The notes under the pieces: generated by a model
What the model was told of the DNA's origin: nothing
Databases searched by the model: none
The model's input: only the letters and a program-made list of their open reading frames with translations
Program-made: the position numbers and the translations under genes
NCBI GenBank assembly: GCA_035553375.1
Contig: DATNCY010000318.1
Span: 698 to 64,697, forward strand
Direction of reading: 5' to 3'
Origin: Gemmataceae bacterium
GTDB lineage: Bacteria > Planctomycetota > Planctomycetia > Gemmatales > Gemmataceae
DNA: 64,000 nt
In this document: positions 4,732-61,669 of the stretch, in pieces
How positions within the stretch are numbered: the stretch's first letter is position 1
How the letters are laid out: the number at the start of each line of letters is the position of its first letter

Positions 4732-5046
4732 ATGTGCCTTTATGAAGAGAGGCGAGAGTATTCGGCGGACAACCACGCAAAGGGGATCGATATACAGAAG
4801 CATGAATCCAGTCAGGACGTGGGAAAGGAAGCTAACAAGCCATCTTTACTCGAAATCATCCGTGGCATCCTCACGTTGGCCTTTCTGCCATTGATCTTGC
4901 TCTGGAGAGACCTGTGGTATGGCCCTCCCCTACGCTGCTTGAGTTGTGGCGCCCGTACCGCTTTCAACTGTGTCGTAACTAAAGATGGCCGCCGGCGCTG
5001 CGAATCGTGCGGACACTACTGGGAGGATCATCGCGGGCATGCGTAG
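4732..5046 (+). CDS. Hypothetical small membrane protein with C-terminal zinc-ribbon (CxxC...CxxC)
   Basis: One hydrophobic helix (ILTLAFLPLILLW) followed by CLSCGARTAFNC...CESCGHYW. Lies in a locally lower-GC stretch. No family recognised. Confidence 0.3.
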   Translation: MCLYEERREYSADNHAKGIDIQKHESSQDVGKEANKPSLLEIIRGILTLAFLPLILLWRDLWYGPPLRCLSCGARTAFNCVVTKDGRRRCESCGHYWEDHRGHA

Positions 5047-5329
5047 ATTATCACGGTTTCTTGCCTGAAATTCTTCTCACAAGTGAGAACAAATCGTCTT
5101 CTTTTTGTCACTTTCTGGAAGAGGACGGCAGCACGATTCATCCGATCGCTTCATTTTCCCGGCAATTCCCAGACGCATCGTTGGCACTCGGTTTGCTTAC
5201 CCTTCGAGCCACGCGATACCGCACCATGAAAGAGGTTGACACTGCTTCCGCGAGGGCTACAAAGTCTCCCGGTAGCACGGCCGATTGGCTCTCCGCCCTG
5301 GTTTCTGTCTCCGGAGCGTTGAATTCGTC

Positions 5330-6013
5330 ATGTCAGACCCCATTACAAATACCCCTGGAGGTTCGCCGCCTCCACCGCCGGACAAACCCGAAACGAACGT
5401 CACCGCCAATCCGCCTGCCGTTCCTCCGGTATCCGCGGCCGTGACGACCAAGCCAGCCGCTGCGCCGCCCAAGCCCGCAGCCAAGCCGGCCGCCAAGGGC
5501 AAGCCGGGGCGACGTGGTTTCCTCTATGCCATGCTCGGCACCTGGATCGGCGTTGCCTGGACGACCATGACTGCGTCGCTGGGATTGATGACGCTGGGCA
5601 CCGTTCGCTTCCTGTTCCCCAATGTCCTCACTGAGCCGCCCAACAAGATCAAAATTGGCTTCGCGGATAACTATGAGGACGGCAAGGTTATCGAGCGCTA
5701 CAAGGATCAGCACGCCTGGATTGTGCGTCGCAAGGATGAGAAGTTTGGCGACATTATTTATGCGCTGAGTACCACCTGCACGCACCTCGGCTGCACGCCC
5801 AACTGGCTCGAACGCGAACAGAAATTCAAATGCCCCTGCCACGGCAGCGGCTTCTACATTAGCGGCATCAACTTTGAAGGCCCCGCTCCTCGACCGCTGG
5901 AACGCTGGGCCGTCCTCGTCGGCGATGACGGGCAAATTGTCGTCGATATGAGCAAGAAGTTCCAGCAAGAACGCGGCGAGTGGAACAACCCCGAATCATT
6001 CATCAAGGTGTAG
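5330..6013 (+). CDS. Rieske [2Fe-2S] subunit of a cytochrome bc-type complex
   Basis: Rieske boxes CTHLGC and CPCHGS; twin-arginine-like GRRGFLYAML followed by a TM helix. ATG 5330 is preferred over the TTG 5285 of the track. Confidence 0.85.
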   Translation: MSDPITNTPGGSPPPPPDKPETNVTANPPAVPPVSAAVTTKPAAAPPKPAAKPAAKGKPGRRGFLYAMLGTWIGVAWTTMTASLGLMTLGTVRFLFPNVLTEPPNKIKIGFADNYEDGKVIERYKDQHAWIVRRKDEKFGDIIYALSTTCTHLGCTPNWLEREQKFKCPCHGSGFYISGINFEGPAPRPLERWAVLVGDDGQIVVDMSKKFQQERGEWNNPESFIKV

Positions 6014-6016
6014 TGT

Positions 6017-6102
6017 CCGCTATCCGCTGTCCGCTATCCGCTGTCCGCCAAACACATAACAGTTTGTTTGGCGGACAGCGGATAGCGGACAGCGGATAGC
6101 GG
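6017..6102. repeat. Periodic-arm hairpin P1: 38-bp perfect stem built from heptamers (TCCGCTA/TCCGCTG)n
   Basis: 6017-6054 is the exact reverse complement of 6065-6102. Lies between the Rieske stop (6013) and the cyt b SD/GTG (6106/6118). Confidence 0.95.
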
Positions 6103-6117
6103 GGTGAGGAGCCAGCC

Positions 6118-6891
6118 GTGTCTGTCGGTGATTTCATTCGTAATTCGCAAGTCTGGAAGAGCATCTTCCGCCACCCGGCCCCGCGCGATCGGCGCAACCG
6201 TGTGGTTGTCATGCTCACCAACGTCTTCCTGCATCTGCATCCGGTGTCGGTGCGCAAGAGCGGTATCGCGCTCAGCTACACCTGGTGCATGGGCGGATTG
6301 ACGTTCTTCATGTTCCTGGAACTGACCGTGACCGGCGTGCTGCTGATGTTTTACTATCGGCCGACGCTCGAACACGCCTACAACGACATCCTCATCCTCC
6401 GCGATGTGGCCACGCTCGGTATCCTCCGCGAGCTGCATCGTTGGGGCGCGCATGCTATGGTCATCACGATCTGGCTGCACATGTATCGCGTCTTCCTCAC
6501 CGGCAGTTACAAGCCACCCAGAGAATTCAATTGGGGGGTCGGCGTCATCTTGCTTGTTTTGACGCTGTTGTTGAGTTTCACCGGCTATTTGCTGCCGTGG
6601 GATCAGCTGGCTATCTGGGCCATCACGGTCGGCAGTAATATGGCCCGCGCTACGCCGTTCCTCGGGCATGAAGGGCCGGGTGCGAGCTTCTTGAAAGTGG
6701 GTGATGTCTCCCTCATCCATTCCGGCTCGGACGCGCGATTCATATTGTTGGGCGGACGCTTCGTGAGCGGCGACACGTTGCTGCGGTTCTACGTGTTGCA
6801 CTGCGTCGCAATTCCGCTCGCTGTCGCCGTGCTGATTGCCGTCCATTTCTGGCGTGTGCGCAAGGACGGCGGCATCAGTGGCCCCCTGTAA
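6118..6891 (+). CDS. Cytochrome b, N-terminal (b6-like) part
   Basis: [38 protein letters not shown] and multiple TM helices. GTG start has GAGGA 7 nt upstream. Confidence 0.85.
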
Positions 6892-6900
6892 AAATGGCAC

Positions 6901-6959
6901 TGCCAGCCCGCAGCGCCGGCAAGGGACATTCGTTCCCTTGCCGGCGCTGCGGGCTGGCA
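6901..6959. repeat. REP-A palindrome copy 1
   Basis: TGCCAGCCCGCAGCGCCGGCAAGGGA / TCCCTTGCCGGCGCTGCGGGCTGGCA: 26-bp perfect arms, 7-nt loop. Lies 10 nt after the cyt b (N) stop. Confidence 0.95.
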
Positions 6960-6994
6960 ATCAATGACAATACTTGTCACCAAGGCGACGAAAC

Positions 6995-8293
6995 ATGGAG
7001 CATACGCTCGACAAAGGTTTGCAAAACGGCCTGGCCTTCTTTTATCTGCTCGTGGCCTTACTCAATTTTGGCTTCGCGGCCTATTGGTATGGGGTCAAGA
7101 AATTGGCCGCAGCCGCCATCTGGGCGGCCGTCGGTGCGCTTTTCTTGATCCATTGTGTTGGTTATTTCGCGCACCTGGGCTGGTCGCTGCCCTTCGGCAT
7201 ACGCGAAGCCGTCGATCAAGCCACCGGGCCGGTCGTCTACACGATGCTCTCCATCGTCGGCTTCATCGTGCTGCTGGTTTTCCGCCGTTTCTTTGTGCAG
7301 CCAAACATCGCCTGGGCACTGCTGCAACTCAGCCTGCTGATTGGCGGATGGGCCATGACCGACCCGAACTTCCGCGACATCGTCGCCAAGGAAGACAACG
7401 TCCCCATCACCATGCTGATTTATTCGGTCGGCTTCTTTACCTGGGCCGCCCTATATCGAGCCGTGCAGAACGATGACCGCATTGCGCGCGGCGAGCCGGT
7501 GTTGGAAAAGGTCGAGGACGAGAAAGTATTGGTCTGGCCGGACCTCGTTTATACCGAACTGATTGCCATGATTATCGCCACGTTCGTGCTGGTAATCTGG
7601 GCCGTGTTGCTCAAGGCGCCGCTCGAACAGCCGGCCACCAGCGCCAAGGCGCCCAACCCATCGAAAGCGCCGTGGTACTTCCTCGGTTTGCAGGAAATGC
7701 TCGTCTATTACGATCCGTGGATGGCCGGTGTCGTGCTGCCGACGATGATTGTCATCGGCCTAATGGCCATTCCCTATATCGACTTCAATCGCCAGGGCAA
7801 CGGCTACTATTCGTTTGCCGAACGTAAGTTTGCCGTGTCGATTTTCCTCTTCGGTTTCGTTGTCCTGTGGGTGACGCTGATTGTGTTGGGCACCTTCTTG
7901 CGTGGTCCAAACTGGAACTTCTTCGGACCATTCGAGTATTGGGATCCGCATAAGGTGCTGCCGCTTAATAACGTCAACCTTTCGCAATTGTTCTGGCTGA
8001 ACATGCTGCATATGCCGCTCGATGATTTCAAGGTTCGTTTCGGCAACTTCCTTGGCCCGATCATTCGGGAGTTGCCCGGCATCATCGTGGTGTTGCTGTA
8101 CCTGTTCGCCCTGCCGCCGCTGCTGGCGCGGACCGTAATGCGACCCTTCTTTGTGCGGATGGGTTTCGTTCGTTTCATCCTGCTGGTGACGTTGATTCAG
8201 TTCATGGCCGCGCTGCCGCTGAAAATGTTGTTGCGCTGGACCCTTAACTTGAAGTACATCGTCGCCATTCCCGAAATCTTCTTCAATATTTAG
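6995..8293 (+). CDS. Cytochrome b C-terminal / subunit IV-like membrane protein with extra TM helices
   Basis: PNPSKAPWYFLGLQEMLVYY matches the PEWYFL-type motif of the cyt b C-terminal domain or PetD. Polytopic. ATG 6995 is in frame with the track start 6974 (TTG). Confidence 0.75.
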   Translation: MEHTLDKGLQNGLAFFYLLVALLNFGFAAYWYGVKKLAAAAIWAAVGALFLIHCVGYFAHLGWSLPFGIREAVDQATGPVVYTMLSIVGFIVLLVFRRFFVQPNIAWALLQLSLLIGGWAMTDPNFRDIVAKEDNVPITMLIYSVGFFTWAALYRAVQNDDRIARGEPVLEKVEDEKVLVWPDLVYTELIAMIIATFVLVIWAVLLKAPLEQPATSAKAPNPSKAPWYFLGLQEMLVYYDPWMAGVVLPTMIVIGLMAIPYIDFNRQGNGYYSFAERKFAVSIFLFGFVVLWVTLIVLGTFLRGPNWNFFGPFEYWDPHKVLPLNNVNLSQLFWLNMLHMPLDDFKVRFGNFLGPIIRELPGIIVVLLYLFALPPLLARTVMRPFFVRMGFVRFILLVTLIQFMAALPLKMLLRWTLNLKYIVAIPEIFFNI

Positions 8294-8302
8294 GGACTTG
8301 CC

Positions 8303-8365
8303 GTTTAGCGACGCTTCGCGGAGGCGTCGGATAATGACAGACGCTTCGCAGAGGCGTCGCTAAAC
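8303..8365. repeat. Composite palindrome between the cyt b C-terminal gene and the cytochrome c gene
   Basis: Outer 12-bp stem GTTTAGCGACGC / GCGTCGCTAAAC encloses two direct copies of the self-complementary GACGCTTCGC(G/A)GAGGCGTC. Confidence 0.9.
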
Positions 8366-8380
8366 AGAATTGGGACGATC

Positions 8381-11300
8381 ATGGCCGCTACCGATCAAAC
8401 CTACCGCAAGCAAAAGACGCTGGATATTGTCTTCGCGGTTTCCTGTATTCTGATGCTGCTAAGCACCTTCTGGATGTTCTGGCAGGATTACGACCGGCAA
8501 TTCAAGCACGTTCAGCGCGACTTCCGCGATGTGGAAGAGGCCATGAACGAGCATCAGATGATCGCGCAATTGCCCTCCAAGGAGGAGGTCGAGGCCAAGC
8601 GGAAGGCGATCGCGGACGCCAAGCAGACTTACGAATCCGAACACGACAAGCTGCGGCCGCGCGAACGCGAGTTGATGGCTTTGCACGATCGCAAGGACAA
8701 CGAATATCGCGGTATCAAGGCTGATTTCGACTCCAAAATGAGTCTCTATAACATCGCCGTCGAACACGTCGGCAAGGAGACCAACGCCGACCTGAAGAAA
8801 GCGCCGCAGAAGGAAGCCGATGACTTGCGGAAAGAACTTTTCGATCCGCAAACGGGGCTGCAAAAGCAACTCACCGACGCTCAGGATGCGCTGGACAAGA
8901 TCGATCAGCAGATCAAGAAAGACGTGACGCAGCCGCTCGATGGGCCGCAACAGGCGGTCAACCAGGCGGAGGACAATCTCAAGAAACTGACAGCGTCGTT
9001 CGATCGCTTGGCCAAGGTGACTTCGCAAAAACGCTGGAAATTCGGCGATCTCTTCCGCACGCTGCCCATTCTCGACGCTTTTGAATCGCCGACCAAGATC
9101 AAACAGCTTTGGCTGCCCGATTTGACCATCGATTACGGTGGATTCAAGGATGTGCCGCGCTACGATCGTTGCATCTCCTGCCACCTCGGTATCGAACGCG
9201 GCAGCTTCGATCACGCCACGCTAACCCGCCTCACCCGCACGCCGGACATCATTTCGGCGGACATCAACAAGGCTCAGGCGCGTAAGAAGGAACTGGAAAG
9301 CAAGGACGGTTCGGAAGAGGACATCAAGCGCGTCGATAACACAATTCAGAAACTTGAAAAAGAGCGCGATCGCGCCAACGGCATGAAGGCTCGGCTCGAT
9401 CAGGCACGCGATATTCTGATGGCGCGGAAGAATGCGGGGGAAAACCTTGGCTTCGATCCGAGCGATTTGCCGGACAAGGTCAAATGGCTGAATATGACGC
9501 CGGGACAAATCACCCAGTACGCCGCCCATCCACGGCTCGATTTGTTCGTCGATGCCAATAGTCCGCATTCGATGGAGAAATTCGGCTGCACCATTTGCCA
9601 TCAGGGACAGGGCAGCGCCACCGATTTCCTGCTGTCCGCACACACGCCGGCCGACGCCAGGCAGGAAGAGGAATGGCACAAGGAGTACGGTTGGGCGCAC
9701 AGTCATTATTGGGATTTCCCTATGCTGTCCAGCCGATTCACCGAGTCGAGCTGTCTCAAATGCCATCACGAAGTAACGGATCTTATTCGTCACGGCAGCA
9801 AGGAAGAAGCGCCCAAGCTGCTGCGCGGCTATAATCTGGTGCGCGAGAACGGCTGCTTCGGCTGTCACGAAATCTCGGCCTTCAAGGCTGGTCGCGAGGT
9901 CGGGCCGGATCTGCGGCTGGAGCCGCAACCGGCGCTGGAGTATTTGACGCCGTCGGAACAGGACAAGGCGAAATCTGATCCGCTCAATCTACCGGGCGCA
10001 TACCGCAAAGTTGGGCCAAGCCTGCGACGCATCGCCGAGAAGACCAATCAGGATTGGGTGCGCAAGTGGATTCAGTCGCCGCGCGGCTTCCGGCCGGATA
10101 CGAAGATGCCGCATTTCTTCGGGCTGAGCAACAACAGCAAGGAGGCGCTGCCGGAGGAGCAGCAGAAGTTCCCCGATGCGGAAATCGCCGGCATCGCCTA
10201 TTACCTGATGGCCGAGAGCAAGGGTAATCTCGAAAGCGATACGACGAAAAAGGACAACGCCCGCAAGGTTCTCGAAAGCCGGATCGCGGATTTGCAGAAA
10301 GTACTCAAGGGCGATCTGCTGCAAGATCGCGATTGGAAGGAACTGACGGATGCGTGCCGCCGTTTGGCCGATCTCGGTTTGATGTCGGTTCCCGCGCAGG
10401 CGAACGAAATCAATCACCTCCTCACTCGGCAGCGGCAGTTGCAAGACCGCATGCAGGAGTTGCGCAAGCGCGAAGCGGCCCTCAAAGCCAAGCCGGAAGC
10501 CGAAGAACTCAGCGCCGACGAAAACAAGGAACTGAGTCAGGCGGGAGGGGAACTCGACAAGGTGACGAAGGATTTGATTGACGCCGGCCAGATTACGCCG
10601 CTGGCGAAACGAATCACCGATGAGGAAGGCAAAACCGTTGATGTGCCCAAGAAGGGCGATGCGGCCAAAGGTCGCAAGCTGTTCACCGAAAAAGGCTGCA
10701 TGGCCTGTCATAGTCACGAAGGCACAACGAAAGCGGGCGATGGCGTCGGCGTGGTGCAGGGCGAGGCGAACTTTGGGCCGAACCTCAGCCGGCTCGCCGC
10801 CAAGATCGCGCCCGAGATCGCCGCCAAGGGCGAGTTGGAAGAGGCGAAACGTCGCTGGATCGTGCAATGGGTGTTGAATCCCACGATCTATCATCCACGG
10901 ACGCGCATGCCCATCACGCATCTGTCGCCGGAAGACGCCGGCAACGTGGCGGAATGGCTGCTGAGCCAAAGGGTGACAGACTGGGAAGACAAGGGACCGG
11001 AAGAGCCGAAGGCGATGGATCTGGTCTCCCTGGCTCGTCTCTATCTCGGCAAGGCACCCGGTTTCACACGGCTGGATGTAGAGAATTTCCTGCCGCCGAA
11101 CACGGGCGAGTTGCCCGGCATCCCGGATGATCGCCTGGGCAACTTGCCGCCCGATTCCGATGAGCGGAAGTTGAACGGCCCGATCAAGGACGACGCGGAA
11201 GGACAGGCGAAACTCAAGTGGTACATCGGCCGCAAAGCTATCAATCGCCTGGGCTGCTTCGGTTGCCACGATGTGCCCGGTTTTGAGACGGCCAAGCCGA

Positions 11301-13129
11301 TCGGCACAGCCCTGAACGATTGGGGCAAGAAGGACGCCGACCGTATTGCGTTTGAGGATGCCGACATCTTCATCCGCGATAACTATAACGTCGTCCCTGT
11401 GCGCAACAATCCCGACGACAAGAGCAAGCCGGCTGCGGACTGGCACGCCAAGGACGGGAAGCAACCTTACGAAAAGCTCTACGCCGAGGCGGTCAATCAC
11501 CATCGGCGCGAGGGGTTCCTGCATCAGAAACTCGTGGAACCGCGCAGTTTCGATTTCCACCGCATTCGCACCTGGGACGATCGGCTACGTATGCCGCAGT
11601 TCCGCTTTGCTCGCACCACGCGACACAAGAACGAAAGCGATGAGGCGTTCCACGCGCGCCAGGAGTTTGAGGAGGCGGAAGCGCGCGAAGCGGTGATGAC
11701 GTTCATCCTCGGTCTGGTCGCCGAGCCGATGCCGCTGAAATATCTCAATCGTCCCGCACCGGATCGCTTGGCCGAAGTCAAGGGACATCAGGTGTTGGAG
11801 AAATTCAACTGCTCCGGTTGTCATCAGATTCGGCCCGGCGTCTACGAGTTCAAGACGAGCGACGAAGGGCTGACGTTCTTGCAGGAAGCCTACAAGTCGA
11901 GCAGCAGCAGTTTCAAGAAAGACCACGTTTTTCCCGGTCATAATGCCTGGGTTGGCGCACCCCAAACATCAGCCGATCGGCTCACGGTGTTTGGCACCCA
12001 TCCCAAGATGGACGATACCTCCTACGAGGATCGCCGAATGTTGGTGGTGCGTCTGACAGATGCCCTGCGTTTCACCGGCACGGATCGCGTAACGCGCAAC
12101 CTGCCGGCGGCCAGCGTGGTACCGATCATCCCCGAAAGCCTGACTGTGCGGGCTGACCCGTGGGGCGGTACCTTCACCGAGTTGATGACCGGGTACATGA
12201 AGCCGCGCGAGGCCGATCCGGACAAGGCGCGGTCGATGCTGCCGCCGCCCTTGATCCGCGAGGGCGAACGGGTGCAACCGAACTGGCTGTATGGCTTCCT
12301 TCTCAATCCGCCGCCGGTTCGCCCGACGAACTACATGATGCTGCGCATGCCGAAGTTCAACATGAGCAGCGAAGATGCTCGCGCTCTGGTGAACTATTTC
12401 AGCGGCGTGTCACGGCTTACCAATCCCGGTTCCGGCGTCACGTCGGAATATGTGGATGTTCATCAGCACGATGAAGCCTACTGGCAGGCCCGTACCCGCG
12501 AATACATCAAGCGGCTCAAGGGCGACAAGAAGTACGACGAGCGCGTCAAGCAGATGGAACCCGTGTGGCAGGACGCGCTCAAACGGCAAATCGCCGAGGC
12601 CGAGGCCGGCTTGGACGCGGCGAAACAAGCCGTCAAGGACGCCCCGGAAGGCGAGCCGCGCAAGCAGAAACAGCAGGATGTGGACGCTCGCGAGGCCAAC
12701 ATCAAGAAGTGGAAAGAGGAACTCGACAAGAAGAATTACGACCGCCTGCGCAAGCATTGGGATGAAAAGGGAGCCTATGCCAGCGATGCGTATCGTCTGG
12801 TGACGGATCGCAATCTGTGCTTGCAGTGTCACAGCGTCGGCGATGTGTCGGCGGCCTTGCCGCAGGGACCGAACCTGGATCTGACGGCGCAGCGATTGCG
12901 GCCGGAGTGGGTTCGGCAGTGGATCGCCAATCCGGATCGTTTGTTCGGCTACAAACCGGCCATGCCGCAGAATTTCCCCAACGATTCGCTAGAATATCAA
13001 AATGTCTTTCTCGGCAGACCGCTCGATCAGGTGACTGCCGTGCGTGATGTTTTGATGGCTTTGCCGCGCGTGGCCGACATGCCGGGCAATCGCTCGCGGG
13101 CGCCCGTCGCGGCCGGAGGAACCAAGTGA
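8381..13129 (+). CDS. Very large membrane-anchored multihaem c-type cytochrome (eight CXXCH motifs) with coiled-coil-like Lys/Glu-rich segments
   Basis: N-terminal TM helix. CXXCH motifs read directly: CISCH, CTICH, CLKCH, CFGCH, CMACH, CFGCH, CSGCH, CLQCH. Lies immediately downstream of the Rieske and cyt b genes. Confidence 0.85.
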   Translation: MAATDQTYRKQKTLDIVFAVSCILMLLSTFWMFWQDYDRQFKHVQRDFRDVEEAMNEHQMIAQLPSKEEVEAKRKAIADAKQTYESEHDKLRPRERELMALHDRKDNEYRGIKADFDSKMSLYNIAVEHVGKETNADLKKAPQKEADDLRKELFDPQTGLQKQLTDAQDALDKIDQQIKKDVTQPLDGPQQAVNQAEDNLKKLTASFDRLAKVTSQKRWKFGDLFRTLPILDAFESPTKIKQLWLPDLTIDYGGFKDVPRYDRCISCHLGIERGSFDHATLTRLTRTPDIISADINKAQARKKELESKDGSEEDIKRVDNTIQKLEKERDRANGMKARLDQARDILMARKNAGENLGFDPSDLPDKVKWLNMTPGQITQYAAHPRLDLFVDANSPHSMEKFGCTICHQGQGSATDFLLSAHTPADARQEEEWHKEYGWAHSHYWDFPMLSSRFTESSCLKCHHEVTDLIRHGSKEEAPKLLRGYNLVRENGCFGCHEISAFKAGREVGPDLRLEPQPALEYLTPSEQDKAKSDPLNLPGAYRKVGPSLRRIAEKTNQDWVRKWIQSPRGFRPDTKMPHFFGLSNNSKEALPEEQQKFPDAEIAGIAYYLMAESKGNLESDTTKKDNARKVLESRIADLQKVLKGDLLQDRDWKELTDACRRLADLGLMSVPAQANEINHLLTRQRQLQDRMQELRKREAALKAKPEAEELSADENKELSQAGGELDKVTKDLIDAGQITPLAKRITDEEGKTVDVPKKGDAAKGRKLFTEKGCMACHSHEGTTKAGDGVGVVQGEANFGPNLSRLAAKIAPEIAAKGELEEAKRRWIVQWVLNPTIYHPRTRMPITHLSPEDAGNVAEWLLSQRVTDWEDKGPEEPKAMDLVSLARLYLGKAPGFTRLDVENFLPPNTGELPGIPDDRLGNLPPDSDERKLNGPIKDDAEGQAKLKWYIGRKAINRLGCFGCHDVPGFETAKPIGTALNDWGKKDADRIAFEDADIFIRDNYNVVPVRNNPDDKSKPAADWHAKDGKQPYEKLYAEAVNHHRREGFLHQKLVEPRSFDFHRIRTWDDRLRMPQFRFARTTRHKNESDEAFHARQEFEEAEAREAVMTFILGLVAEPMPLKYLNRPAPDRLAEVKGHQVLEKFNCSGCHQIRPGVYEFKTSDEGLTFLQEAYKSSSSSFKKDHVFPGHNAWVGAPQTSADRLTVFGTHPKMDDTSYEDRRMLVVRLTDALRFTGTDRVTRNLPAASVVPIIPESLTVRADPWGGTFTELMTGYMKPREADPDKARSMLPPPLIREGERVQPNWLYGFLLNPPPVRPTNYMMLRMPKFNMSSEDARALVNYFSGVSRLTNPGSGVTSEYVDVHQHDEAYWQARTREYIKRLKGDKKYDERVKQMEPVWQDALKRQIAEAEAGLDAAKQAVKDAPEGEPRKQKQQDVDAREANIKKWKEELDKKNYDRLRKHWDEKGAYASDAYRLVTDRNLCLQCHSVGDVSAALPQGPNLDLTAQRLRPEWVRQWIANPDRLFGYKPAMPQNFPNDSLEYQNVFLGRPLDQVTAVRDVLMALPRVADMPGNRSRAPVAAGGTK

Positions 13130-13923: not shown

Positions 13924-13941
13924 TTGTGAAGTCACGGTTTT

Positions 13942-13992
13942 ACCAGCCCGCAGCGCCAGTAAGGGAATTCCTTGCTGGCGTCGCGGGCTGGT
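13942..13992. repeat. REP-A palindrome copy 2 (slightly degenerate)
   Basis: ACCAGCCCGCAGCGCCAGTAAGGGA ... CCTTGCTGGCGTCGCGGGCTGGT, 19 nt after the stop at 13923. Confidence 0.9.
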
Positions 13993-14018
13993 AAACCATT
14001 TATGCAACCTGGAGGTAT

Positions 14019-14998: not shown

Positions 14999-15063
14999 CC
15001 GACAAGCCCAGAGCGCCAGCGACGGGATGAAGAACCCCGTCGCTGGCGCTCTGGGCTTGTCGG
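14999..15063. repeat. REP-A variant (GCGCCAGCGACGGG core), 28-bp perfect arms
   Basis: CCGACAAGCCCAGAGCGCCAGCGACGGG / CCCGTCGCTGGCGCTCTGGGCTTGTCGG, between convergent stops 14984 and 15076. Confidence 0.95.
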
Positions 15064-17661: not shown

Positions 17662-17687
17662 GCGGACCTCCTTGTCCTGGCTGGGGA

Positions 17688-17750
17688 GAGCTTAGTATCG
17701 TTTACGTTTCGCCGACACGGATTTGGCGAAACGTAAACGATATTAGGCTC
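17688..17750. repeat. REP-C palindrome copy 1 (GTTTACGTTTCGC core)
   Basis: ATCGTTTACGTTTCGCC / GGCGAAACGTAAACGAT 17-bp arms, in the divergent kdsB-alaS intergenic region. Confidence 0.9.
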
Positions 17751-17893
17751 TCGCCGGGCGTTTGCCGAACTCCGACACCAGATTAGACCTTCCCTCGGTC
17801 CGGCTGACAAGACCGCTCGGCGTTGACGGCGGCAGCGTTAGGTTGGAGAATAATCGAACTCTGTTCACTGAGGACGTTTATCGAGAAGCATTC

Positions 17894-20611: not shown

Positions 20612-20668
20612 ACCAGCCCGCAGCGCCAGCAAGGGAAACCCATCCCCTTGCTGGCGCTGCGGGCTGGT
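20612..20668. repeat. REP-A palindrome copy 3
   Basis: 24-bp arms ACCAGCCCGCAGCGCCAGCAAGGG / CCCTTGCTGGCGCTGCGGGCTGGT, between convergent alaS (stop 20608) and the gene ending at 20675. Confidence 0.95.
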
Positions 20669-22064: not shown

Positions 22065-22180
22065 AATTAACCACAGAGACACAGAGGCACAGAGGAACGA
22101 CATAAAAAAATGGGCGAGCAGAGGCTTTCACCAACCACTCACCCATTTTGTATTTTCTTCTCTGTGTCTCTGTGGTTATT
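22065..22180. repeat. Periodic-arm hairpin P2: arms built from 8-nt units (CACAGAGA/CACAGAGG)
   Basis: The left arm AACCACAGAGACACAGAGGCACAGAGGAA...AAAAAAATGGG pairs imperfectly with the right arm CCCATTTTGTATTTTCTTCTCTGTGTCTCTGTGGTT. The left arm carries one extra unit. Confidence 0.85.
22104..22146 (-). terminator. Putative intrinsic terminator for the minus-strand operon ending at 22176
   Basis: On the minus strand a 9-bp stem (ATGGGTGAG/CTCGCCCAT, one G-U) with a 19-nt loop is followed by a run of six T. It is embedded in the centre of hairpin P2. Confidence 0.5.
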
Positions 22181-29305: not shown

Positions 29306-29353
29306 CCAGCCCGCAGCGCCAGCAAGGGTTCCCTTGCTGGCGCTGCGGGCTGG
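29306..29353. repeat. REP-A palindrome copy 4
   Basis: 23-bp perfect arms CCAGCCCGCAGCGCCAGCAAGGG / CCCTTGCTGGCGCTGCGGGCTGG, 4 nt after the metK stop. Confidence 0.95.
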
Positions 29354-31886: not shown

Positions 31887-31937
31887 GCCAGCCCGCAGCG
31901 CCAGCAAGGGATTCCCTTGCTAGCGCTGCGGGCTGGC
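31887..31937. repeat. REP-A palindrome copy 5
   Basis: GCCAGCCCGCAGCGCCAGCAAGGG / CCCTTGCTAGCGCTGCGGGCTGGC (one mismatch), 12 nt after the stop at 31875. Confidence 0.95.
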
Positions 31938-33432: not shown

Positions 33433-33478
33433 GCCCGGAGCGCCAGCGACGGGATAACCCGTCGCTGGCGCTCCGGGC
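33433..33478. repeat. REP-A variant (GCGCCAGCGACGGG core)
   Basis: GCCCGGAGCGCCAGCGACGGG ATAA CCCGTCGCTGGCGCTCCGGGC, between the coaD stop (33482) and the kinase start (33381). Confidence 0.95.
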
Positions 33479-35115: not shown

Positions 35116-35163
35116 GTGAGGGATTGTAAAGGGATTGGCTCGACTTGGCGAAGCCAATTTACT

Positions 35164-35252
35164 CCCCTCTCCCCCGTACTCGGGGGAGAGGGGTCGGGGG
35201 GAAGTCTCGCCCCTCACCCCCAACCCTCTCCCCCGAGTACAGGGGAGAGGGG
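35164..35252. repeat. GGGGAGAGGGG-type double palindrome
   Basis: CCCCTCTCCCCC GTACTC GGGGGAGAGGGG, then TCGGGGGG...CCCCTCACCCCC, then CCCTCTCCCCCGAGTACAGGGGAGAGGGG. Lies in the divergent region 35116-35339. Confidence 0.9.
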
Positions 35253-35339
35253 AATAGGATCGGATTGCCCTTGCCTAGCGAGCGTGAGGCTTCGACAATC
35301 AGCAGCGAGTGATCGATCTTTCTTTCAGGAGTTGCCGCC

Positions 35340-36150: not shown

Positions 36151-36205
36151 CCAACCCGCAGCGCCAGCAAGGGTTTTCATTTCCCTTGCTGGCGCTGCGG
36201 GCTGG
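36151..36205. repeat. REP-A palindrome copy 6
   Basis: CCAACCCGCAGCGCCAGCAAGGG / CCCTTGCTGGCGCTGCGGGCTGG (one mismatch), between convergent stops 36140 and 36210. Confidence 0.95.
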
Positions 36206-41083: not shown

Positions 41084-41111
41084 GGTTCCATCCACGCGGC
41101 GTGATTTCACA

Positions 41112-41200
41112 ACAAGCAAGGAGCGCAAGCGACGGGTCGAAAACCCGTCGCTTGCGCTCCGGGCTTGTTTGATCCCGTCGCTTGCGCTCCGGGCTTGTTT
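41112..41200. repeat. REP-A variant with an extra duplicated right arm
   Basis: ACAAGCAAGGAGCGCAAGCGACGGG / CCCGTCGCTTGCGCTCCGGGCTTGT (41112-41168), plus a second copy of CCCGTCGCTTGCGCTCCGGGCTTGTTT at 41174-41200. Lies between the rsfS stop and the argS start. Confidence 0.9.
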
Positions 41201-41691: not shown

Positions 41692-41993
41692 CTCCGGACC
41701 GGATCAAGCCAGTCCCCTACACGGAAAACACACAACCGAGAGCTATCCGCTCTCCGTGGGATGCCGAACCGCCGTTCGGTCGGACCATCCCATCTCTCTT
41801 ATCATCCAGCCTCCTGCCACCGTCGTCAAGCATCTCCTGCTCAAATTGCGCGTTTCACGGGTATCGATTGAGACTACTGTACTAATTATAGCGACCCAGA
41901 CAGTCCCCTCGGAACTTTTCCCACTCTTTTGTCTTCCTTTAACCAGACAAACGCCAGCCTGCGAGGTTCGCCAGCTGATGAATTTGCTTGTTG

Positions 41994-42060
41994 GCGAGCC
42001 TCCCGCGTGAGCGGGGGGAGTTTTCACGGCATTCTCCCCCCGCTCACGCGGGAGGCTCGC
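41994..42060. repeat. Single-copy perfect palindrome, 27-bp arms
   Basis: GCGAGCCTCCCGCGTGAGCGGGGGGAG / CTCCCCCCGCTCACGCGGGAGGCTCGC with a 13-nt loop. Confidence 0.95.
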
Positions 42061-42194
42061 CATTTGTTAGCGCCTCCGAGGAAATGCTCTGGCACTGGCA
42101 CGGTCTCGCCGCTATAGTCCGCCGCGCTTTGGGAGTTGGCCGCAAGCACGTTCTCGTTTCGTCGTGCAAACCGTGTCTTGATCAGTCCGTGGTT

Positions 42195-53768: not shown

Positions 53769-55127
53769 ATGGGGAAAACATTGATCCCTCCCGGTCCCAA
53801 GGGGCATTTCCTCAGCGGTCATCTGCCGGAGATGCGCCGCGATTTGCTCGGTTTCTACTTGCGCTGCGCCCGCGAATACGGCGATTGCACCACGCTGCGC
53901 TTTGGACTGCGGCGCATCTTCTTCGTCAATCACCCCACGTTCATCGAGCAAGTCCTGCACAGCCGTAATTTCACCAAACACTACGCCCTGCGCATGAATC
54001 GGCTGCTGCTGGGCAATGGCTTGCTGACCAGCGAGGGCGATTTCTGGCTGCGGCAACGCCGGCTCATTCAGCCGGTCTTTCAGCGCGAGCGCATCGTATC
54101 CTACGCCGCCGACATGGTTGCTTTCACCCAGCGACAACTCGCCTCGTGGCACGATGGCGAGGTGCGCGACCTGCACGCCGAGATGCGAAAGCTGACGCTG
54201 GCCATCGCTTCCAAGAGTCTGTTCGGTGCCGACGTGACCGGCCAATCCGAGGCGGTCGGTCAGGCGCTTCACGATGCGATGGGCACCTTCAGCCAGCGTT
54301 TCTTCCGTGTCTTCCGCATTCCGGAGCGCATTCCGACCCCGGAAAACCTGCGGATTCGCCGCGCTATTCGCCGACTGGATGCAATCCTCTACGGCCTCAT
54401 CAATCAACGCCGCGCTGAAGGCGAGAAAAACGATCTACTATCGATCTTGTTGCACGCGCGACACGAGAGCGACGGCACCGGCATGACCGATCAGCAACTG
54501 CGCGACGAGGCCATGACGCTTTTTCTGGCCGGCCACGAAACCACGGCCCTGGCGCTTTCCTGGGGCTGGTATTTGCTGGCGCAGCATCCGGAGGTGGTCG
54601 AAGAACTGCAAACGGAACTGCATCAAGTGCTTGGCGGGCGTCCGCCGACCGTCGCCGATTTGCCAAACCTGCGCTATACCGAGATGGTCGTGCAAGAAGT
54701 GATGCGGGTTTATCCGCCCGCGTATGCGATTGGCCGCCAGGCTATCCAGGCTTGTACGATCAACGGGTATCCCGTGCCGGCGGGCGGAACGGTACTCATG
54801 AGTCAGTGGGTGGTCCATCGCGATCCGCGCTTTTTCGATGATCCGGAGCGCTTTTATCCGGGACGTTGGGCGGATGGCCTGGCGCGCCGCTTGCCCCGTT
54901 ACGCTTACTTCCCCTTCGGCGGCGGACAGCGGCTGTGCATCGGCAACACCTTCGCCCTGATGGAATTGTCCCTAGTATTGGCGACGATTGCCCAGAGTTT
55001 CCATTTCGCGTTGACTCCCGGCTTGGTGGTTGGTCTGCGGCCTCAGTTGACTCTGCAACCGGATCGCCCCATCCTGCTGAAACTGCAAAGGAGGAATGCA
55101 CAATGCACAATGCACAATGCACAATGA
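53769..55127 (+). CDS. Cytochrome P450
   Basis: Haem-thiolate loop FPFGGGQRLCIGNTFA, I-helix LFLAGHETTA, ExxR (EVMR), PERF-like PERFYPGRW. ATG 53769 is preferred over TTG 53736. Confidence 0.9.
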   Translation: MGKTLIPPGPKGHFLSGHLPEMRRDLLGFYLRCAREYGDCTTLRFGLRRIFFVNHPTFIEQVLHSRNFTKHYALRMNRLLLGNGLLTSEGDFWLRQRRLIQPVFQRERIVSYAADMVAFTQRQLASWHDGEVRDLHAEMRKLTLAIASKSLFGADVTGQSEAVGQALHDAMGTFSQRFFRVFRIPERIPTPENLRIRRAIRRLDAILYGLINQRRAEGEKNDLLSILLHARHESDGTGMTDQQLRDEAMTLFLAGHETTALALSWGWYLLAQHPEVVEELQTELHQVLGGRPPTVADLPNLRYTEMVVQEVMRVYPPAYAIGRQAIQACTINGYPVPAGGTVLMSQWVVHRDPRFFDDPERFYPGRWADGLARRLPRYAYFPFGGGQRLCIGNTFALMELSLVLATIAQSFHFALTPGLVVGLRPQLTLQPDRPILLKLQRRNAQCTMHNAQ

Positions 55128-55174
55128 AAGCTCATTGTCTTTTATTCTGCATTCTGCATTCTGACTTCTGCATT
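55095..55174. repeat. Periodic element P4: (AATGCAC)x4 facing (ATTCTGC)-type heptamers
   Basis: 55095-55126 holds four exact heptamers and overlaps the last 10 codons and the stop of the P450 gene. 55144-55174 reads ATTCTGC ATTCTGC ATTCTGA CTTCTGC. The two arrays are complementary at 6 of 7 positions per unit. An inner 6-bp hairpin is CAATGA aagc TCATTG. Confidence 0.9.
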
Positions 55175-55178
55175 AAGA

Positions 55179-55868
55179 ATGTATCCACACCGCATTCGCT
55201 TGCGTGCCCCCTGGGGATGTGAACGCCTACCCGCTGGACTGCCGAATGCGGACAGCGGACAGCGGACAGCGGATTGCGGACTGCCGACTGCCGACTGCGG
55301 CCGTCGCTTCCGCCGGCGTTTTGGCTATCCCGGACGCATTGATGCGTATGAGCGTGTCTGGTTGACGTTCGTGGGCGTCGCCGGCGCGGTGGAAGTGTGG
55401 CTCAACGATGTCGCCTTGGGACGGCGAAACGAAGCATCCGGAGCGTTCGAGTTCGAGGTGACGCCGTTGTTGCGGCCCCGCAACGAGTTGGTCGTTGACG
55501 TGGAAGGAACGGCGGAACAAGGTGTATGGGATGAGGTCGCTCTGGAAGTTCGCTGTACGGCGTTCTTGCGCGGCCTGTCCTGGTTCGCGATAAAAAAAGG
55601 AGAGCGGGCGGAGTTGCATGTTACCGGTCAGGTGGTCGGCGTGGCCGAACGGCCGCTCGAACTATACATCGTGTTGGATCGCTCCGTCGTCGCCTATCAA
55701 GTGGTGACGGCGACGACCGAAGGGCAACCGTTTGAGATTGTCGTGCCGGACCTGGCGGTGGAAGACGGCGGTTCAGTGGTCAAAGTCGATCTGGTGAATG
55801 GGGCATCGGTCTGGTACACCAATGAGGGAACCGTGACGTTGGAGTCAAGATCGAGCTTAGGTGGATGA
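55179..55868 (+). CDS. Hypothetical protein with GH2 sugar-binding-like jelly-roll N-domain, carrying an in-frame heptanucleotide-repeat insertion
   Basis: IRLRAPW ... RRFGYPGRIDAYERVWLTFVGVAGAVEVWLNDVALG ... FEFEVTPLL resembles the GH2 N-terminal domain pattern. Residues 20-41 are encoded by the 7-nt repeat at 55236-55298. Confidence 0.45.
   Translation: MYPHRIRLRAPWGCERLPAGLPNADSGQRTADCGLPTADCGRRFRRRFGYPGRIDAYERVWLTFVGVAGAVEVWLNDVALGRRNEASGAFEFEVTPLLRPRNELVVDVEGTAEQGVWDEVALEVRCTAFLRGLSWFAIKKGERAELHVTGQVVGVAERPLELYIVLDRSVVAYQVVTATTEGQPFEIVVPDLAVEDGGSVVKVDLVNGASVWYTNEGTVTLESRSSLGG
55236..55298. repeat. Periodic element P5: nine tandem heptamers (GGACAGC consensus) inside a coding frame
   Basis: GGACTGC CGAATGC GGACAGC GGACAGC GGACAGC GGATTGC GGACTGC CGACTGC CGACTGC. 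Shares the AGCGGAC/AGCGGAT unit with the right arm of P1. Confidence 0.95.
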
Positions 55869-61580: not shown

Positions 61581-61669
61581 GGAGAGGTGGCTGAGTGGCC
61601 GATAGCGCCGGTTTGCTAAACCGGTGTCGGGGTAACACCCGACCACGGGTTCGAATCCCGTCCTCTCCG
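61581..61669 (+). tRNA. tRNA-Ser (anticodon GCU), class II with long variable arm; CCA not encoded
   Basis: Acceptor GGAGAGG/CCTCTCC. Anticodon stem CCGGT/ACCGG with loop TTGCTAA. Variable stem GTCGGG/CCCGAC. T-arm ACGGG-TTCGAAT-CCCGT. Confidence 0.95.

Follow-up and report, generated by a model that had tools for sequence, protein, structure and literature searches.

A palindromic heptanucleotide microsatellite separating the Rieske gene from the cytochrome b gene in a Gemmataceae-like soil planctomycete

Cyanobacteria reportedly contain dispersed tandem heptanucleotide repeats (STRR) in their intergenic DNA. Intergenic heptameric SSRs with convergent inverted pairs have been described in Xanthomonas (unit GGGAATC) and Nostoc (GGGGAYT) (Rehm et al., 2015, PMC4692102). 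These repeats are 89-93% intergenic and lie on average 28 nt past the upstream ORF; they are scarce between divergent genes and present inside operons, with about 185 arrays giving 70-75 convergent inverted pairs, which can form a stem-loop. The repeats differ in length between species, and their function is given as unknown (PMC4692102). As cited in the same paper, heptamers are in general excess among bacterial SSRs (Mrazek et al., 2007), and polymerase slippage has been put forward for heptamer repeats. Direct repeats of another heptamer, TAACTGA, are found in Beggiatoaceae, Cyanobacteria and Bacteroidetes, in intergenic DNA and within operons. They are AT-rich, lie just 5' of start codons, include one indirect case among 170, and have no known mechanism of spread (MacGregor, 2015, PMC4679880).

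We analyzed a hairpin, here called P1, that separates the Rieske and cytochrome b genes in a 64,000-nt stretch of planctomycete DNA (the window). P1 resembles the Xanthomonas and Nostoc repeats in its tandem 7-nt units, its non-coding position near an upstream stop, its inverted arrays and its place inside an operon. It differs from them in its unit (CCGCTRT/AYAGCGG), which is not G-rich, in its planctomycete host, and in having perfectly complementary arms with a unique inner stem; in the clade of P1, moreover, the architecture also occurs with 8- and 9-nt units and nested around other hairpins. Since the unit is not G-rich, no quadruplex is expected, and a G-quadruplex reading of the kind considered for Xanthomonas was rejected (the unit has GG runs only). 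With the STRR, P1 shares tandem heptamers in intergenic DNA, whereas the STRR have other units, belong to another phylum and are described as direct arrays rather than as perfect hairpins. Arrays of the P1 heptamer in other genomes, (AGCGGAY)n, are biased to non-coding DNA and rare between divergent genes, like the Xanthomonas and Nostoc repeats, and like TAACTGA they present one heptamer in tandem across distant phyla; unlike TAACTGA, P1-type arrays lie just 3' of stops and are inverted.

REP hairpins are said to stabilise upstream mRNA in E. coli and, when located within about 15 nt of a stop codon, reportedly can impede terminating ribosomes. P1 is similar to REP, BIME and REPIN elements in being a stable palindrome just past a stop codon, also within an operon, but it belongs to no high-copy family, and its 86 nt form a perfect structure with microsatellite arms. 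Template switching at quasipalindromes, which reportedly copies a change in one arm to the other arm, is a known route from imperfect inverted repeats to perfect palindromes, and in this respect resembles the origin proposed below; it is said to have been demonstrated in reporters of E. coli, with point changes and short indels rather than whole heptamer units, and not in planctomycetes.

Structure, position and authenticity of the hairpin

The window has a G+C content of 60%, and Gemmataceae MAGs encode the closest counterparts of its proteins. The genes and features around P1 are as follows.

5330..6013, + strand: gene for the Rieske [2Fe-2S] subunit (Pfam PF00355, E = 4.9e-09; identical protein on the independent contig L001)
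6014..6048, + strand: left tandem array, (TGTCCGCTATCCGC)x2.5, alternating CCGCTAT/CCGCTGT heptamers (TRF)
6017..6054, + strand: left arm of the P1 stem, four heptamers and CCGCCAAACA
6055..6064, + strand: loop of P1, 10 nt, CATAACAGTT
6065..6102, + strand: right arm of P1, exact reverse complement of the left arm, with the array (GCGGACAGCGGATA)x2.3 at 6071-6102
6106..6111, + strand: Shine-Dalgarno (SD)-like GAGGAG, separated by 3 nt from the stem upstream and by 6 nt from the GTG downstream (from the sequence)
6118..6891, + strand: gene for the cytochrome b N-terminal subunit, GTG start (Pfam PF00033, E = 7.4e-39)
6901..6959, + strand: REP-like perfect 26-bp hairpin at the next operon junction after P1, in the same post-stop niche but of another family
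6995-8293: gene for a cytochrome b C-terminal-like membrane protein
8381-13129: gene for a multihaem cytochrome c of 1582 residues

A preliminary description of this DNA had reported a perfect 38-bp hairpin with heptanucleotide microsatellite arms, and this was confirmed. All 38 of 38 positions of the arms (6017-6054 and 6065-6102, with 10 nt between them) are complementary, which makes P1 the longest perfect inverted repeat of the window among arms up to 150-200 nt apart. Each arm consists of four heptamers (CCGCTAT, CCGCTGT, CCGCTAT and CCGCTGT, as read in the left arm) and the unique inner segment. In TRF, the arrays at 6014-6048 and 6071-6102 have period 14 (100% match; 2.5 and 2.3 copies, respectively) and period 7 (88% match; 4.7 and 4.6 copies). 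P1 has three properties of intergenic heptameric SSRs with inverted pairs: 7-nt head-to-tail units, a non-coding location nearer to the upstream stop than to the start codon that follows, and an inverted second array. The predicted RNA fold of 101 nt has an energy of -84.6 kcal/mol (z = -14.8, equalled by 0 of 200 shuffled sequences), and a 146-nt stretch including P1 folds with -94.4 kcal/mol (z = -11.8). The periodicity of the arms also allows alternative pairings, 21 and 18 bp long, with the register displaced by 14 nt.

The reported placement between the Rieske TAG and the SD of cytochrome b holds as well, with 3 nt on each side of the stem. The stop codon (6011-6013) is followed by TGT and then by the stem, the left array beginning 1 base past the TAG; on the other side come GGT, GAGGAG, CCAGCC and the GTG at 6118, so that P1 ends 15 nt 5' of the start codon. 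The inverted repeat thus takes up 86 of the 104 nt between TAG and GTG. Our reading of the initiation region, GAGGAG-N6-GTG, agrees with the GAGGA-N7-GTG proposed earlier, and the GTG start is backed by alignment, as the proteins of relatives begin with MS(V/I)(A/G)DFIRN (from ATG) at the same position. SD-like motifs precede 17 of the 44 crude gene calls in the window. An exact-protein look-up found no record of the window's cytochrome b, and a scan of 5000-8500 detected no promoter-like sites.

We compared P1 with several element classes. It had been described as unlike an intrinsic terminator, and we came to the same view: beyond the stem, the + strand continues with GGTGAGGAG and the - strand with ACACTACACC, and a scan for terminators and promoters gave no match at P1; as there is no U-tract, P1 is not a canonical intrinsic terminator. 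Likewise, the statement that it differs from REP elements was borne out, since P1 lies outside the REP-like families of the window, and neither the window nor a metagenome scan contains the near-identical dispersed copies expected for a member of a REP or REPIN family. The window contains no second copy of the P1 core, the other array of the same heptamer (at 55236) being no copy. A search of JGI metagenome contigs with the core pattern, CCGCCAAACA-N4-20-TGTTTGGCGG, returned 103 matches, none of which had heptamer arms; core matches lacking heptamer arrays were taken as chance, so that no paralogue or orthologue of P1 was found. P1 does not qualify as a MITE, given flanks (TAGTGT and GGTGAG) that lack a direct repeat and the lack of other copies in the window and in the metagenome scan. 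Nor does it qualify as a phase-variation SSR, as the arrays lie 3' of the stop and 5' of the SD, and the spacing between SD and start codon is outside the array. P1 had no match to Rfam at the gathering threshold; below it, only generic long-hairpin models of miRNA precursors were returned. The window's only Rfam match at gathering score is a tRNA at 61581-61669 (89 nt versus a 71-position model).

P1 is genuine sequence and not an assembly artefact. The independent ENA contig L001 contains an identical P1 and is 99.975% identical to the window over 16,013 nt (4 positions differ). The runs holding the window sequence are soil metagenomes, and P1 is present in unitigs of two such runs from different studies (X1 and X2), including a 70-nt unitig over the loop and both arms; one X2 unitig links the 3' end of the Rieske gene to the left arm. 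We give next to no credence to an artefact at a palindromic repeat, even though short-read graphs break at P1 (unitigs stop there, as expected of a palindrome) and one X1 contig leaves at 6012 into REP-like ATCCACCAGCACGCAGCGCCAGCAAGTGCT instead of P1, which may represent a minor allele or an artefact of the assembly graph. Unit numbers at P1 were the same in all four sources (window, L001, X1 and X2), for which unitigs built from 31-mers are a poor test. The comparison of orthologous junctions that had been proposed as a check gave no unit-number variation: the four sources of P1 are identical, and the relatives lack P1.

The Rieske-cytochrome b junction in related genomes

We read the junction in seven related Gemmataceae contigs and in one relative from RNA runs. 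The relatives have 82-89% nucleotide identity in cytochrome b (four measured); the RNA-run relative, recovered from two metatranscriptomes, has ~90% identity. Their spacers are listed below.

L124: 9 nt, without hairpin
L122: 9 nt, without hairpin
RNA-run relative: 11 nt, without hairpin
L121: 52 nt, small hairpin
L123: 59 nt, 11-bp hairpin
L230: 86 nt, 18-bp hairpin forming part of a longer stem with imperfections
L228: 88 nt, imperfect hairpin
L229: 260 nt, tandem 8-mer and 7-mer arms forming a giant hairpin (-150 kcal/mol)
One further contig: 47 nt (length only)

P1 was absent from all 8 relatives read, and the spacer contents were unrelated, although some hairpin is present at about 6 of the 8 junctions (about 7 of 9 when the window is counted). 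The turnover is evident in L229 and L230, which have identical cytochrome b proteins and ~92% identical flanking genes: from stop to start, their spacers (9741-10000 and 1212-1297, respectively) show zero similarity. The spacer is thus hypervariable, and P1 represents one of its states rather than an ancestral one. It is lineage-specific and stands where several relatives have a 9-11-nt stop-start junction, and it is either young or homogenised. No direct array lacking an inverted partner was seen at this junction.

The initiation signals differ as well. Relatives with a 9-nt spacer start cytochrome b with ATG and have no SD, in contrast to the GTG and strong SD of the window, and these junctions look like cases of stop-start coupling. 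Long-spacer variants have SD-like motifs, whereas two of the three 9-11-nt variants have none, the third (CGAGGCCCCCA) having GAGG.

P1 does not qualify as a conserved regulator of the bc complex operon. A special role at this junction, as implied in the preliminary description, is unsupported, since every relative examined lacks the element. It had also been said that an element unique to this locus and invariant, with no effect on downstream translation, would be only a curiosity. For the exact P1 sequence, uniqueness and invariance are largely what we found, with no relative carrying it and no change in unit number; the same does not apply to its architecture and its heptamer, as described below.

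Tandem-arm hairpins in the window, the clade and other phyla

Post-stop hairpins are common in the window. A strong hairpin starts at most 25 nt past the stop in 16 of 44 crude gene calls, versus 3 of 200 random positions, and such hairpins also occur between convergent genes. Perfect stems account for 21 of 33 post-stop hairpins. In the others, the sense-strand mismatches (G-T 10 versus A-C 8) are a count that is not informative about bias; the lack of a G-T preference is a hint against a purely RNA-level maintenance. Long hairpins were also seen between divergent genes (17683-17755, 35160-35256 and 41992-42062), so that not all of them are post-stop elements. A 66-nt unit, itself a hairpin, is repeated 2.4 times between convergent genes at 1885-2041. 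The hairpins of the window include two sets of REP-like or related sequences, and three further hairpins that share the architecture of P1, with arms of tandem 7-9-mers.

6901-6959, 13939-13995, 20612-20668, 29306-29353, 31887-31937, 36151-36205, 48495-48548: REP-like CCAGCCCGCAGCGCCAGCAAGGG family, seven hairpins of 23-26 bp, perfect or near-perfect, 3-15 nt past the stop
14999-15063, 33433-33478, 41111-41199: related family CCCGTCGCTGGCGCTCYGGGC
22068..22178, - strand: arms of tandem 8-mers (CACAGAGN), 19-bp perfect outer stem over the stop of a WD40 gene, enclosing a terminator-like inner hairpin with a U7 tail
50216..50351, + strand: arms of tandem 9-mers (CACGGAAAN), 47-bp stem with 1 mismatch (-77.5 kcal/mol), placed after the stop of a transglutaminase/7TM gene and ahead of GGAGG-N7-ATG, where an ATP-grasp gene starts
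55095..55174, + strand: imperfect hairpin, arms (AATGCAC)4.6 and, downstream, (CTGCATT)n, in which each unit has a single C-C mismatch; the (AATGCAC)4.6 array covers the last codons and the stop of a P450 gene
Window 22068-22178, L001 ~200-222, L122 3791-3911, L229 9756-9966: CACAGAG-type family with tandem 8-mer outer arms, AACCACAGAGnCACAGAG...CTCTGTGGTT

The REP-like sequence of 6901-6959 reached a depth of 4181 in soil run X1, versus about 9 for its flanks. The palindromes of the CACAGAG type were seen at four loci, belonging to three or four genomes; they have the outer termini AACCACAGAG...CTCTGTGGTT in common, their interiors are unrelated, and their palindromy extends into the locus-specific flanks. 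The outer end of the 50216-50351 hairpin, TTTTCACCAC, is also found in the L229 element.

Comparable elements were found at other junctions of the clade. In L124, an AAATCCG/CGGATTT hairpin follows cytochrome b and occurs again one gene on in the same operon; in L229, another junction of the same operon has hairpin arms of GCTMTTA; and L076, a further Gemmataceae MAG, contains a P1-like CCGCTGT/CGGATAG pair. Spacers in this clade are replaced wholesale by very stable hairpins, many of which consist of tandem 7-9-mers.

The P1 heptamer itself recurs in the window, as had been described for 55236-55298, though within a coding gene.

55236..55300, + strand: second AGCGGAC/AGCGGAT array (unit at 55247-55281), (GCGGACA)n and derivatives, in the CDS (55179-55868) of a small GH2_N-like protein (MYPHRIRLRxPW...)

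Here (GCGGACA)3 encodes ADSGQRT. Gemmataceae homologues have the same stretch at varied lengths, and other homologues have an unrelated segment of ~33 residues in its place.

Scanning for (AGCGGAY)n arrays and their inverted pairs had been suggested as a further check. With the pattern AGCGGAYAGCGGAYAGCGG and one genome per species, we detected arrays at no fewer than 119 loci in many phyla; those with matches listed include Acidobacteriota, Gemmatimonadota, Planctomycetota, Omnitrophota, Kiritimatiellota, Actinomycetota and others, as well as Steroidobacteraceae and other Gammaproteobacteria. Among the matches listed, 62 of 114 testable arrays were spanned by no open frame (versus 15% of random positions), and crude gene calls placed 33 arrays between co-directional, 19 between convergent and 6 between divergent genes, with 19 intragenic. 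An inverted partner (at least 14 nt within 200 nt) accompanied 20 of 129 arrays (~15%) among the matches listed, compared with 9 of 625 controls. Perfect stems among these pairs measure 35, 31 and 31 bp; nesting with other heptamers was seen in several pairs. In two gammaproteobacterial MAGs (L062 5088-5251 and L028 1680-1810), nested palindromes consist of outer AGCGGAT and inner GTGAGTC, each with its complement.

The common property of the arrays in (AGCGGAY)n loci is their period, not their sequence. Other arrays in the same loci were mostly of period 7, with at least 27 different units among the matches listed. The strand of (AGCGGAY)n relative to flanking genes (20:13 among the matches listed) was not informative. 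Counting perfect arrays of at least 2.5 units, the 64-kb window contains four of period 7 and one of period 6, with periods 5, 8 and 9 absent. In 839 kb of other-genome loci, which had been chosen for a heptamer array, the numbers were 30 for period 7, 11 for period 6, 2 for period 8 and 1 for period 9. P1 is one member of a class in which tandem 7-9-mers form arrays, frequently as inverted pairs, directly past stops in its own clade and in many other phyla.

Origin and effect of the hairpin

Our favoured, fairly probable explanation is that P1, the heptanucleotide palindrome of a Gemmataceae-like soil planctomycete, arose by slippage and template switching and acts as a REP-like stem in the mRNA. 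Replication slippage would build a heptamer array, the periodic arms could pair in registers 14 nt apart, and an intrastrand template switch (fold-back, or quasipalindrome correction) would then copy one arm onto the other. Such copying would account for the exact mirroring of the alternating A/G unit variants, and it would agree with the perfect stems of 21 of 33 post-stop hairpins and with sense-strand mismatches that do not favour G-U. The sequence of P1 would itself not be under selection. As no intermediate was seen at the junction, slippage and template switching are what we infer for its origin.

Judging from the predicted fold, P1 would probably give the transcript an intercistronic stem of very high stability. 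As part of the operon mRNA, P1 would fold into a stem of 38-39 bp that could act like REP hairpins as a barrier to 3' exonucleases, and it would be a plausible substrate for a double-strand RNase (RNase III-type). Being so near the stop codon, its base would have to be opened by the terminating ribosome. P1 would also abolish stop-start coupling of the Rieske and cytochrome b cistrons, so that translation of cytochrome b would depend on its own GAGGAG-N6-GTG. In the two metatranscriptomes with parts of the genes, no contig of at least 97% identity covers 5880-6240, and the only RNA contig over the junction comes from the ~90%-identity relative without a hairpin.

The hairpins at about 7 of the 9 junctions read could also reflect selection for some hairpin there. 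P1 would then be a selected intercistronic RNA element, in which any very stable stem is favoured while the sequence is free to turn over, and which sets the relative stability or translation of Rieske and cytochrome b by exonuclease protection, RNase III processing or uncoupling. The exact fit of P1 between a stop codon and a good SD, the unrelated hairpins of the relatives, the SD-like motifs of the long-spacer variants and the reported stabilisation of upstream mRNA by REP hairpins in E. coli agree with this explanation. Nevertheless, we regard it as unlikely: three relatives do with 9-11 nt and no hairpin, the sense-strand mismatches lack a G-U bias, and hairpins follow a third of all genes, which removes the need for any explanation specific to this junction. 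The same general occurrence of post-stop hairpins, also between convergent genes, would suit a terminator or attenuator without U-tract after the Rieske gene, as would the GC-rich and very stable stem directly past the stop codon. We hold such a function to be very unlikely, given the missing U-tract, the location within an operon whose subunits are obligate partners, with the next start codon 16 nt away, and the lack of promoter-like sites in the region scanned; an RNA contig also joins both genes, but in the relative without a hairpin.

Mobile spread could instead account for units that recur in a genome (AGCGGAY twice in the window, AAATCCG at two junctions of L124, CACAGAG at four loci). 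P1 would in that case be a small mobile palindrome, REPIN- or MITE-like, with tandem-repeat terminal inverted repeats, which had been inserted behind the stop codon. Compared with the 9-nt junctions, P1 is indeed an insertion, the CACAGAG-type termini are common to loci with different interiors, and other families of the window are clearly dispersed. On the other hand, no second P1 core was found in the window or among the 103 metagenome matches, the ends of P1 lack a direct target duplication, units vary by locus, and no transposase was identified; in addition, an insertion does not predict palindromy that extends into locus-specific flanks, as in the CACAGAG type. Altogether, a mobile element appears rather improbable. 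Lowest among the functional readings we place an array bound by a protein with specificity for the AGCGGAY heptad in DNA or RNA, which is extremely unlikely. The tandem occurrence of this heptamer in many phyla and a similar proposal for the TAACTGA repeats (PMC4679880) speak for it, but the same loci contain at least 27 different heptamers and the strand counts relative to genes (20:13) show no clear bias (both among the matches listed), the relatives have other units at equivalent sites, and the unit is tolerated in the coding region at 55236-55300.

It also seems rather improbable that post-stop palindromes growing symmetrically by 7-9-nt units are the product of a distinct undescribed process. 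This could be a hairpin-templated expansion of microsatellites, or a very small self-propagating element with tandem-repeat termini. Such a process would be at work both in Gemmataceae and in several further phyla from soil, with whole spacers replaced faster than synonymous sites diverge.

At its own locus, P1 is a small matter, as it exerts no conserved control over the bc complex operon, and the clade-wide turnover of hairpins with tandem arms is the more interesting lead. Inverted tandem heptamers past stops are already known from Xanthomonas and Nostoc; what is new is P1 as a planctomycete example. Hairpins of this kind break short-read assemblies and can mislead gene callers. The clade offers a natural system for asking why heptameric repeats are in excess in bacteria and so frequently form inverted pairs, and allows testing whether template switching between hairpin arms drives their growth.
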